A stretch of DNA of 64,000 nucleotides from Flaccisagitta enflata (taxonomy: Eukaryota). A model generated the notes under the pieces. It did no database searches. It was not told the origin of the DNA and was given only the letters and a program-made list of their open reading frames with translations. The stretch spans positions 14,570,001-14,634,000 of the forward strand of contig OZ231126.1 in NCBI GenBank assembly GCA_965153355.1, read 5' to 3'. Of the stretch, positions 51,067 to 52,638 are shown one piece after another. Within the stretch, counting starts at the first letter, position 1. Each line of letters opens with the position of its first letter. The position numbers and the translations under genes are program-made.

Positions 51067-51777
51067 TTACAAATCGATTTCTTCGTCAAGAACATCTTCA
51101 TCATCAATATCATCATCATTGTTTTCAACCGGCGCCACGCATACTCGGCGGCATTTATCGTAAATACTCGGCTCTTCTCCCGCCGCGAGACTCGGCCCGC
51201 AGCATTTCTCGTTTCCCGCGCAGTCGCCGTCGTGACGACACGCGGCCCTTTCCACTTTGCTCTGCGCCTCCGCCACGTGGCAAAAGATCATGTGCAGCTT
51301 CCGGTCCGAAGGCGTCGACGGGCAGCTGCCGCCCTTCGTCATGTCCAACTTGGCGGCGCATTCGAAAACGCATTTGCCTTCGTCGTTCTGCTTGGCGCAA
51401 CATTGCTGATCCTCGCTGCAAGTTTCCGAACATTTCGAACCCCACCATCCGCTTCCTCTCTTCACCCGACCACCTTCACCACCACCTCCTCCGCCGCCTC
51501 CTCTTCTTCCTCCTCTACCTCCTCCCAATCCACTAAATCTGCCCCTACCGCCTCCCGATCCACCGCCTCTTCCGCCTCCTCTTCCTCCTCCCATTCCTTC
51601 CCGGCATGTCTTCCAGAATGTGGAGTGGTCGACGTCGCCGAGACGCGGGCAAGCATCCCAAAACGAAAACTCCTTCTTTTCGCGTATTTCGGGCGTTTGG
51701 CAGCTGCAAACGCACTTGTTGTCGCTGCCGACGGATTTGCAATTTCTTTTGTCAGACGGACAACCTTCCGGATCACA
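51067..51777 (-). CDS. Cys-rich multi-WAP-like (four-disulfide core) protein, terminal exon with Gly/Arg-rich loop and acidic tail
   Basis: Acceptor (t)n catatcag|TGT, 236 codons plus TAA. C-terminal KGGSCP..C..CRHDGDCAGNEKCC..C..VCVAP matches the WAP pattern KxGxCP..C..CxxDxDCxGxxKCC..C..C. Confidence 0.85.
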   Translation of the reverse strand, partial: CDPEGCPSDKRNCKSVGSDNKCVCSCQTPEIREKKEFSFWDACPRLGDVDHSTFWKTCREGMGGGRGGGRGGGSGGGRGRFSGLGGGRGGRRGGGGGGGGEGGRVKRGSGWWGSKCSETCSEDQQCCAKQNDEGKCVFECAAKLDMTKGGSCPSTPSDRKLHMIFCHVAEAQSKVERAACRHDGDCAGNEKCCGPSLAAGEEPSIYDKCRRVCVAPVENNDDDIDDEDVLDEEIDL

Positions 51778-52443
51778 CTGATATGAAAAAAAAAAAAAAA
51801 GAAAAATATAAATCCCAGAAGCAACGAAAAGGTGCCCTAACCTTCGAGCCAAACGTCATCATAATCTCTCTCGACATTTTGAGATAAAAAACGCTTCCCT
51901 GAGCCATTTGTTTTTTGACAAATTTCTCAAGTTAAAGATCTACGATCAGTCTTGACGTTATTAATCATGTTCTAGTTCTATACCGACAAAATGCATTGAA
52001 CATAGGGAACTCGAGAAGCAAGAAAATCAACAACAAACAAACAAATCCTAGTCTCGAGGCTCAAAACCTAGCCTCGAGGCCCAAATCTCAGCCTCAAGGC
52101 CTCGAGGGATTTGGGCCTCCAGGCTGAGATTTGGGCCTTGAGGCTAGGATTTGGGCCTCAAGGCTAGGATTTGGGCCTTGAGGCTGGGATATGGGCCTCG
52201 AGGCTGGGATTTGGGCCTCGAGGCTGGAATTTGGGCCTCGAGGCTGGAATTTGGGCCTCGCGGCTAGTATTTGAGTTGGGGAGCGGGGGGACAGATGTAG
52301 GAGAAGAAGAAGAAGAAGAAAGAGAAGGAGAAAAAAAAACAACAAACAAACAAACAACCAACCAACAACCAACAACCAAAAACAAACAAACCAACAAAAA
52401 TAAAGAAAAAAAACAACCAAAGCTAGCGAACAAGGAAAATTAC

Positions 52444-52638
52444 CTTGGGTAGATCGCGACACGATTTCCAAAAAGCTGCTTTTTCCATCCAAGTTGTGTC
52501 TGCAGGTAACTCCCGTTTCGGGCATTTCAAATTGCTGTCCTCGGGGTCTTTGCACACAAATTCACACGTGTTGGACGAGGAAACCTTGGGGCAGCAGACT
52601 TGTCCTTCGAGGCATTGCCCACAAACATCCAGATCAGT
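52444..52638 (-). CDS. Cys-rich multi-WAP-like protein, penultimate exon
   Basis: Acceptor tctgttttcag|ACT, 65 open codons TDLDVCGQCLEGQVCCPKVSSSNTCEFVCKDPEDSNLKCPKRELPADTTWMEKAAFWKSCRDLPK, donor AAG|GTAATT. Phase 0 at both ends and in frame with the next exon. Upstream (signal peptide) exon not found. Confidence 0.8.

Follow-up and report, generated by a model that had tools for sequence, protein, structure and literature searches.

Crustins, elafin/SLPI-type inhibitors and the invertebrate proteins lustrin A and perlwapin are the closest described systems to a gene that lies in a 64,000-nt stretch of DNA of the arrow worm Flaccisagitta enflata (contig OZ231126.1, positions 14,570,001 to 14,634,000 of the forward strand). 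The whole stretch is called the window in the following, coordinates are positions in it unless a contig is named, and all parts of the gene lie on the minus strand. The window gene encodes a protein of 348 amino acids, with a predicted signal peptide, then four eight-Cys modules (32 Cys) and an acidic tail. Within a well-known superfamily the protein forms a divergent branch, and three paralogues (A, B and C) are present elsewhere in the same genome (794 Mb in nine contigs).

Crustins have Gly-rich and Pro/Arg-rich N-termini before their WAP domains, as stated in the accessible part of PMC9680087. Crustins of Types II–IV, as described there, resemble the present family in having a signal peptide, a Gly-rich or Pro/Arg-rich low-complexity region, a C-terminal WAP domain and a cationic/hydrophobic Cys2 site without the inhibitory Met, and Type IV has two WAP domains, as in paralogues A–C. 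However, the 12-Cys signature of crustins in the strict sense, Types I, II and V (a four-Cys region and one WAP domain), is absent from the window protein and from the paralogues, which have 16 Cys each. Type II crustins carry hydrophobic Gly tetra/pentapeptide repeats at the N-terminus, whereas the Gly tract of the window protein is intramodular, polar and cationic, and its mature N-terminus leads straight into module 1. The window protein further differs from crustins in its acidic tail, long loops and predicted helices, and from Types III and IV, which have one or two WAP domains in arthropods, in its four modules and chaetognath host. As it lacks the 12-Cys signature, carries its Gly tract internally rather than N-terminally and comes from a non-arthropod, it is not a crustin.

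In elafin/SLPI-type inhibitors, the Cys2 segment is the protease-binding loop. The window protein shares their Cys order, with a CC pair at positions 5-6 and a C-x3-C end, but the reactive-site loop is replaced by a predicted helix and a variable loop of 5–57 residues, no P1 residue or Met is conserved, and the Cys6-Cys7 loop has 7–15 residues instead of 3. Lustrin A, which has a Gly/Ser domain, also combines WAP with a Gly-rich region; however, the window protein gave no Lustrin_cystein match, and one paralogue exon reached E 0.5. Perlwapin is a secreted invertebrate protein with three WAP domains, which are highly conserved canonical ones, unlike those found here (PMC2989941, accessible part). 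Arrow worms are moreover shell-less.

Chaetognaths are abundant predators of the plankton. The available part of PMC12460157 reports for them as many as 2,250 families specific to the phylum, of which many mark cell types, and many phylum-specific genes without an assigned role; the window family fits this class. WAP is unmentioned in the text and three supplementary files of that source, and its larger tables may list these genes. In literature searches, with most subscription papers outside reach, no paper on chaetognath WAP proteins was among those listed, and none on a furin-cleaved insertion in a WAP four-disulfide core was found.

A four-exon gene with four eight-Cys modules

A sequence-only reading of the window had joined two exons and called for the 5' exons to be completed and a signal peptide to be sought. 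Both exons were confirmed (coding exons 3 and 4, joined in phase 0) and two further ones were located within the window, giving four coding exons at 61493-51067 with an open frame, as read from the sequence:

61606..61612, minus strand: TATA-like box, 119 nt 5' of the ATG, from the sequence
61448..61493, minus strand: coding exon 1 (46 nt, phase-1 GT donor), with the ATG and the signal peptide's hydrophobic core, where 9-residue hydropathy reaches 3.2
61199..61293, minus strand: coding exon 2 (AG..GT borders, in frame), with the last part of the signal peptide, which is predicted to be cut after residue 19, and the first two Cys of module 1
52639..61198, minus strand: intron 2, 8.6 kb, rich in repeats
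52444..52638, minus strand: coding exon 3 (195 nt, AG..GT), with the last six Cys of module 1 and the first two of module 2
51778..52443, minus strand: intron 3, 666 nt, GT..AG, phase 0
51067..51777, minus strand: coding part of exon 4, with the remainder of module 2, modules 3 and 4, the acidic tail and the stop TAA, from the sequence and RNA contigs
50138..51066, minus strand: probable 3' untranslated region (AATAAA at 50206), its extent taken from contigs (X2 records 9 and 10, spanning 50138-50895 and 50914-51462), which are unable to show the RNA end

The signal peptide was called from hydropathy and homology. The N-terminus is hydrophobic, no hydrophobic segment follows downstream, and L098, a full-length intron-free orthologue with 32 Cys, carries a matching signal peptide. 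A phase-1 intron within the signal peptide is also part of the exon models of paralogues A, B and C, of which B's model alone is backed by a transcript product. In BLASTP comparisons with the orthologue P0019, exon 2 matched at 38% over 26 amino acids (E 7e-6), exon 3 at E 1e-6 and exon 4 at 43% identity (E 7e-50). A motif scan of intron 2 in the three sense frames found no extra Cys-module exon, and L098 and P0019 have four modules each and no additional one. An open frame within intron 2 (60143-60535, plus strand) is probably a fragment of a hAT transposon; we take a motif in it to be of the BED zinc-finger type.

Nine plankton metatranscriptome runs from three studies have words in common with the window, and four of the ten runs listed were aligned to 49900-53300 only, a region without exons 1 and 2. 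Two contigs from two studies (X1 record 4 and X2 record 13) both align to 52444-52641, flanked at either end by other sequence. Their alignments end at the predicted borders of exon 3, and the 3 nt beyond the acceptor match the last three bases of exon 2. Intron 3 had zero depth in both of its unique bins (51838-51951 and 52294-52407) in all four runs. The exon 3-exon 4 joint was absent from the joints table of these runs; over the first two bins of exon 4, X1 had depths of 1.76 and 0.71, with 1.82 and 0.71 expected if record 4 runs 75 nt into exon 4. The cysteine pattern exceeds chance, as the Cys framework is kept in orthologues at 36–48% identity and RNA contigs of two studies stop at the borders of exon 3.

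At the 5' end, a plain promoter is judged from the sequence to be as likely as trans-splicing at the AG immediately 5' of the ATG, because a TATA-like box is present. Two of the three paralogues have a similar box, B at 93 nt and A at 194 nt upstream of the ATG, and C has none. Chaetognath spliced leaders resemble those of no other phylum, according to the accessible part of PMC2481426, whose Table 3 is the source of the Form 3 leader. The 21-nt core of Form 3 has 264 exact copies in the genome (reversed control: 0), which marks the animal as an arrow worm; they stand in tandem arrays of ~730-bp period (at C3:84.83, C3:89.82, C4:23.12 and C4:78.15 Mb) and, in as many copies, dispersed. One of the four dispersed copies read has no GT-type donor nearby and may be retroposed. 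Leader genes of Spadella lie in the 5S cluster (PMC2566580, accessible part); in one 10-kb 5S stretch checked here, spliced-leader patterns were not found.

The modules and the gene family

The numbers of residues between successive Cys are 16,10,2,5,0,8,3 in module 1, 20,5,4,6,8,1,1 in module 2, 14,57,3,5,0,8,3 in module 3 and 13,13,5,5,0,15,3 in module 4. Modules 1, 3 and 4 thus follow the WAP order, with CC at 5-6 and C-x3-C at 7-8. The last three modules are located as follows:

51700..52524, minus strand: module 2 (Cys86-Cys138), divided by intron 3
51358..51651, minus strand: module 3 (Cys155-Cys252), an eight-Cys WAP-like module that bears the insert
51139..51324, minus strand: module 4 (Cys264-Cys325), a divergent WAP whose loops are long, with a 16-residue helix predicted through Cys2

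The sequence-only reading had described tandem Cys modules with shared motifs, followed by a canonical WAP domain. All four modules do have eight Cys, but module 2 has no CC pair and ends in C-x-C-x-C: the first Cys of the pair is lost and a new one stands two residues past Cys7. In both full-length orthologues the spacing of module 2 is 17,5,2,5,0,8,3, with the WAP order retained, so that a disulfide has likely been relocated in the window protein.

Module 4 could not be upheld as canonical and is filed, by its sequence, as a divergent WAP. It scores 20.5 bits (E 6e-4) against Pfam PF00095, just below the cut-off of 20.8 (23.1 bits in the genome scan); the homologues P0001 and P0019 score 22.1 and 20.0 bits. 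Its loops have 13, 13 and 15 residues, and ordinary WAPs of the same genome have 3–5 residues between Cys6 and Cys7. A profile of the module-4 type against 14 ordinary WAP domains of this genome gave 94.5% and a score of 36.3, with at most 17.9 in 30 column shuffles. Modules 1–3 gave no PF00095 match; they are WAP-like by Cys order only and probably WAP-derived, and their type aligns with the module-4 type over 56 columns at 23%. The ordinary WAP repertoire of the genome is large: PF00095 matched 62 times at E <= 0.1, often in Thr/Ser-rich genes with several WAP domains, with loci for example at C1:85.40-85.53 Mb, C6:53.70-53.74 Mb, C5:52.29 Mb and C1:75.37 Mb.

An AlphaFold model from a 12-row alignment had a mean predicted local distance difference test (pLDDT) of 66 and a predicted template modelling score of 0.37, and reached pLDDT 83–87 in most core blocks. 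In this model, Cys2 lies in a helix in both module 3 and module 4, and Cys5-Cys8 are part of a beta hairpin. A single-sequence model (pLDDT 46) was unusable. Foldseek returned no match to the model at E <= 0.001, and a second look by VIA was likewise empty. In VIA-align, module 3 with the insert trimmed matched half-SLPI (4doq_D) weakly (Z 2.1, 41/47 residues, root-mean-square deviation 4.1); this was the last of seven rows at Z >= 2, yet the sole one on module 3.

The Cys2 sites bear on the possibility that the protein is a multi-headed serine-protease inhibitor, in which the residue after Cys2 (Lys, Arg, Arg and His in the four modules) would be P1 and the long loop a bait region. WAP inhibitors use the Cys2 region, and in elafin-type contact regions a Met stands by the scissile bond, for which antimicrobial WAPs substitute cationic and hydrophobic residues (PMC9680087, accessible part). 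Lys or Arg directly follows Cys2 in modules 1–3 of the window protein, and the insert occupies exactly the Cys2 loop. However, the Met after Cys2 is absent from all 12 modules that the window protein, L098 and P0019 have between them, although some modules of paralogue B have it; the residue after Cys2 varies (Asn, Gly and Ile in L098; Ser, Gly and Arg in P0019); Cys2 is predicted within a helix rather than an extended loop; and a floppy loop of 57 residues is generally a substrate rather than a canonical inhibitor. Phe/Trp and Lys/Arg/His flank Cys2 in all four modules. Since Cys2 ends an aromatic, Lys/Arg-flanked predicted helix, no Met follows and the next residue is unconserved, canonical inhibition is argued against, and this role is considered quite unlikely.

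The family comprises the window gene, the three paralogues and 19 homologous sequences (18 protein records and one contig). A HMMER search over 1.84 billion representatives gave five matches, three of them true; P0004 and P0005 were false matches due to Gly-richness and were set aside, and further relatives came from profiles and cluster look-ups. With exon 4 as query, a single-sequence word search found nothing among 8000 candidates, and the ESM Atlas held no usable match. The nearest Atlas cluster for the family was crustin-like, with a score of 0.76, and serves only as a lead. Searches of PDB sequences returned nothing but Gly-linker matches or one row at E 6.3. Of two metagenome pattern scans, the first had 424 matches with none confirmed, and the second 125 with one confirmed. 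Searches of the own genome with exon 4 or exon 3 alone gave one low-complexity and one repeat match only, and the paralogues were recovered only with P0002, P0003 and P0019 as queries:

C3:48166300-48167400, plus strand: paralogue A, two modules, with a 122-residue N-terminal Gly/Arg/Pro/Phe tract (net +11) and a 50-residue insert in the last module
C2:88354500-88356700, minus strand: paralogue B, two modules, with a Pro/Arg and then a Gly/Asn/Met tract
C2:44489500-44495000, minus strand: paralogue C, two modules, with a probable Gly/Ser exon and a Thr-rich tail

Paralogue B is matched almost exactly by P0008, its spliced product, and by P0018, and we infer that the other homologues are chaetognath as well. 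The best genome match of P0019 is the window gene (E 9e-32; other loci 2e-5 or worse). In trees, the window protein groups with P0001, P0002, P0009, P0019 and L098 apart from the paralogue groups (support 94/100 and 85/85); neither grouping is starred and P0002 is a long branch. The suggestion of a new family gained support: no family record read carries a name, and no full-length match to a described protein was obtained in the searches run. The window gene is a new branch of the WAP superfamily, in a family probably limited to chaetognaths.

The paralogues share the last two modules with the window protein. Their Gly-rich tracts are N-terminal, in A and B together with Pro/Arg/Phe-rich tracts and with Gln as the first residue after the signal, and group A adds an insert of 41–64 residues between Cys1 and Cys2 of the last module. 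Judged from these sequences, low-complexity inserts are a family trait of movable position. The protein might be structural, adhesive or part of a coat, with the modules as rigid nodes, the Gly-rich loop as elastic or cohesive spacer and the charge blocks driving coacervation or ion binding; a furin cut would then be maturation or incidental, and epidermal secretion, egg jelly or chitinous spines and teeth would be candidate sites. The spacers vary freely in length, composition (Gly/Arg, Ser/Asp/Asn, poly-Glu, Gly/Asn/Met) and paralogue position over a fixed Cys frame. However, the proteins are short (215–330 residues) and lack both long regular repeats and a chitin-binding domain (WAP was the only Pfam match), and the Pro/Arg-rich, Gln-start N-termini of the paralogues seem better suited to defence peptides. 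WAP domains occur in the abalone shell-matrix proteins lustrin A and perlwapin (PMC2989941, accessible part), in Spadella two secreted proteins that resemble protease inhibitors are expressed by adhesive gland cells, their domain type being unstated in the available part of 10.1101/2025.01.31.635879, and chaete and epidermal cells are marked by many chaetognath-specific genes (PMC12460157, accessible part). A matrix or adhesive role is rather unlikely but ranks close behind the defence role discussed below.

A component of prey-capture venom from head glands, matured by a convertase like many disulfide-rich toxins, was also considered. Arrow worms are predators said to paralyse their prey, and the window protein is, as predicted, secreted, Cys-rich and lineage-limited. 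WAP-type waprins are present in snake venom glands, but the available part of the same source reports waprins as antibacterial (PMC11126030). Against a venom role, there is no tandem expansion (four dispersed loci, with none in ~70 kb of flanking DNA), the cores are conserved at 42–69% between lineages, and no solved toxin was matched by sequence or fold in the searches run. It is the least likely of the roles proposed.

The Cys2-Cys3 loop, the furin-type site and the acidic tail

The loop, the furin-type site and the tail are located as follows:

51433..51603, minus strand: Cys2-Cys3 loop of module 3, 57 residues (33 Gly, 12 Lys/Arg, 2 acidic, 3 aromatic), isoelectric point (pI) 12, predicted disordered
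51457..51468, minus strand: RVKR furin-type site (residues 216-219), then Gly-Ser
51070..51138, minus strand: acidic tail, 23 residues with 12 Asp/Glu and no Lys/Arg

A Gly/Arg tract between Cys2 and Cys3 of one module, ending in RVKR and forming a loop inside that module, had been claimed from the sequence alone, and this stood. The tract through RVKR has 47 residues (30 Gly, 10 Lys/Arg, four RGG), and pLDDT in the insert is below 50, with mostly 83–87 in the flanking cores. The RVKR codons are covered by X1 record 3 (175 nt, with one differing letter whose position is not listed). The loop has 48 residues in L098, 37 in P0002 and 16 each in P0019 and P0009 (one 92% cluster, counted as one lineage), whereas paralogue groups have 6–12; P0001 starts after the loop and was not scored. 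The hypervariable low-complexity loop thus keeps a constant place, between Cys2 and Cys3 of the penultimate module.

RVKR is the sole R-x-[K/R]-R of the window protein and lies in a segment predicted to be flexible, in a protein predicted to be secreted, as in a furin substrate. The assumption that orthologues keep such a site held only in part. None of the four other loop-bearing sequences (L098, P0019, P0009 and P0002) has RVKR, and P0019, P0009 and P0002 have no R-x-x-R in the loop. The idea that a furin-type site is private to the window gene was rejected, since L098 has RGRR, followed by Gln, in the same loop. Four of the 18 family sequences scanned contain the motif, namely the window protein and three group-A proteins in which Pro follows; a Pro after a furin motif blocks cutting. 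The genome has eight matches to convertase P domains. Cutting by a convertase is rather probable in this species, whereas a conserved switch is improbable; cleavage is not obligatory for the family, because half of the orthologue lineages are without a furin-type site. The furin story of the sequence-only reading is therefore possible for this species but not a family rule.

The loop could also be near-neutral, a tolerant surface loop grown by replication slippage, with accidental furin and charge matches and the function wholly in the modules. Loop length in orthologues ranges from 16 to 57, an in-frame 3-nt insertion lies between two Trp codons just after the furin-type site in X2 (a relative ~96% identical), and simple repeats are dense across the region in a microsatellite-rich genome. 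When the window loop was shuffled 100,000 times, R-x-[K/R]-R arose in 25% and R-x-K-R in 5% of the shuffles, so that the motif is weak evidence alone; shuffling of the L098 loop gave a furin-type site in 12%. On the other hand, all five loops retain a Gly-Gly-basic core and, ahead of Cys3, an aromatic end, and the loops of the window protein and L098 have eight identical residues in common at 42% overall identity. Gly codons are mixed (GGA 16, GGT 8, GGC 6) rather than one pure repeat, and comparable inserts, first acidic, then basic and then with Trp, are seen again in a different loop of paralogue group A. A neutral loop is judged very unlikely.

The suggestion that the acidic tail balances the cationic loop gained some support. 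Net loop charge is +10 in the window protein, +6 in L098, +4/+3 in P0019/P0009 and -11 in P0002, with 12, 8, 6 (in both P0019 and P0009) and 3 acidic residues in the respective tails. The two rank together across four lineages, an order expected once in 24 by chance, and net charge is -8 in all three near-complete orthologues. A match of tail acidity to loop charge is a lead from these sequences.

A possible defence role and the genomic surroundings

The window protein may be a secreted effector of surface or body-fluid defence, convergent with crustacean Gly-rich WAP peptides; this is the preferred role, held tentatively at a little below even chances. The modules would be disulfide-locked scaffolds derived from WAP, in which the Cys2 segment has turned into an aromatic, cationic helix, so that they bind surfaces rather than canonically inhibiting proteases. 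From module 3, the loop would hang as a flexible polycation with a Trp/Phe end, neutralised by the acidic tail during secretion and storage. A furin-like convertase probably cuts after RVKR in this species, which would yield a basic N-chain (200 residues, pI 8.5) held to an acidic C-chain (129 residues, pI 4.4) through two disulfides of module 3, Cys1-Cys6 and Cys2-Cys7, given WAP pairing. The cut would free the cationic arm to bind anionic microbial surfaces; it would tune the protein and not be required, because half of the orthologue lineages are without the site. Defence is favoured by the crustin-like list of parts, the Gln-start Pro/Arg- and Gly-rich tracts of the paralogues and the charge masking, and the cationic Gly-rich region of one crustin alone binds a viral protein (PMC8537896, accessible part).

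A more specific version, WAP-derived pro-effectors of the phylum's own, would have a cationic Gly/Arg peptide stored as a loop of a disulfide module, masked by a charge-matched, co-evolving acidic tail and activated by a convertase, giving a disulfide-linked two-chain protein or a released peptide. It is doubtful.

Several points weigh against a defence effector. For an antimicrobial-peptide system, four dispersed genes are, in our judgement, few. With a pI of 5.4, the mature protein is acidic as a whole, in contrast to typical cationic peptides, and a cationic arm is not universal, as the loop of P0002 is net acidic and that of P0019/P0009 is just 16 residues long. A furin-type site is present in the loops of two of five sequences (two of four lineages), with differing letters, and arises readily in shuffled loops. 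The charge correlation is post hoc, with n = 4 and lineages that are not phylogenetically independent. The profile of the module 1–3 type matched ordinary WAPs at 35% over 11 columns (score 20.0; shuffles at most 13.7). The disulfide pairing assumed, 1-6, 2-7, 3-5 and 4-8 as in WAP domains, was not found in a literature search. Finally, a polyA raw-read run (X10, ~6% read) gave no reads on unique exon parts, only on repeats; its 'goes back' joints in the Gly tract were assigned to other transcripts.

Other elements were observed around the gene. A voltage-gated sodium channel gene at 3603-4787 (minus strand) runs on past the window start into L008 (~3950-9990, minus strand); its exons are very large, and its N-terminus is long and acidic. 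The L008 frame matches Ion_trans (E 8e-45); the frame in the window has no Pfam match and is presumably part of the channel, by its motif. The pore loops carry D, E and K in domains I–III, and domain III has Pro after Trp-Met, where we assume Nav1 channels usually to have Asp and which we take to be an outer-pore position tied to tetrodotoxin binding. This Pro is of interest, as chaetognaths are said to use tetrodotoxin. Long trinucleotide microsatellites at 43611-44969, 6200-6800 and 27643-27870 read as poly-Cys frames and are apparently not genes. Recurrent tandem arrays with a 20-bp period (49000-49147, 52106-52273 and 54546-54691) are joined to a short interspersed element abundant in RNA contigs. 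L009 (~6400-7400, minus strand) has a frame of 349 amino acids and L004 (~8000-9300, minus strand) one of 415, which we take to be a Tc1/mariner-like transposase and gag-like, respectively.

With the window gene, one chaetognath family gains a defined anatomy of WAP-derived modules, predicted helices and several slots for low-complexity inserts. The compensated Cys move in module 2 (51700-51777 and 52444-52524) is a natural test case for disulfide migration, and the natural series of loops (57, 48, 37 and 16 residues, with or without a furin-type site, cationic or acidic) allows a direct test. If the matrix reading is true, the protein would be a candidate component of arrow-worm epidermis, glue or spines. 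If the pro-effector reading is true, it would belong to a peptide-based defence or toxin system, the first to be described in the phylum, with the WAP reactive-site loop newly used as a cargo slot. If the defence reading is true, the inhibitory loop of the WAP fold could carry a cleavable peptide as cargo, and a non-arthropod phylum would have reached the crustin design independently.

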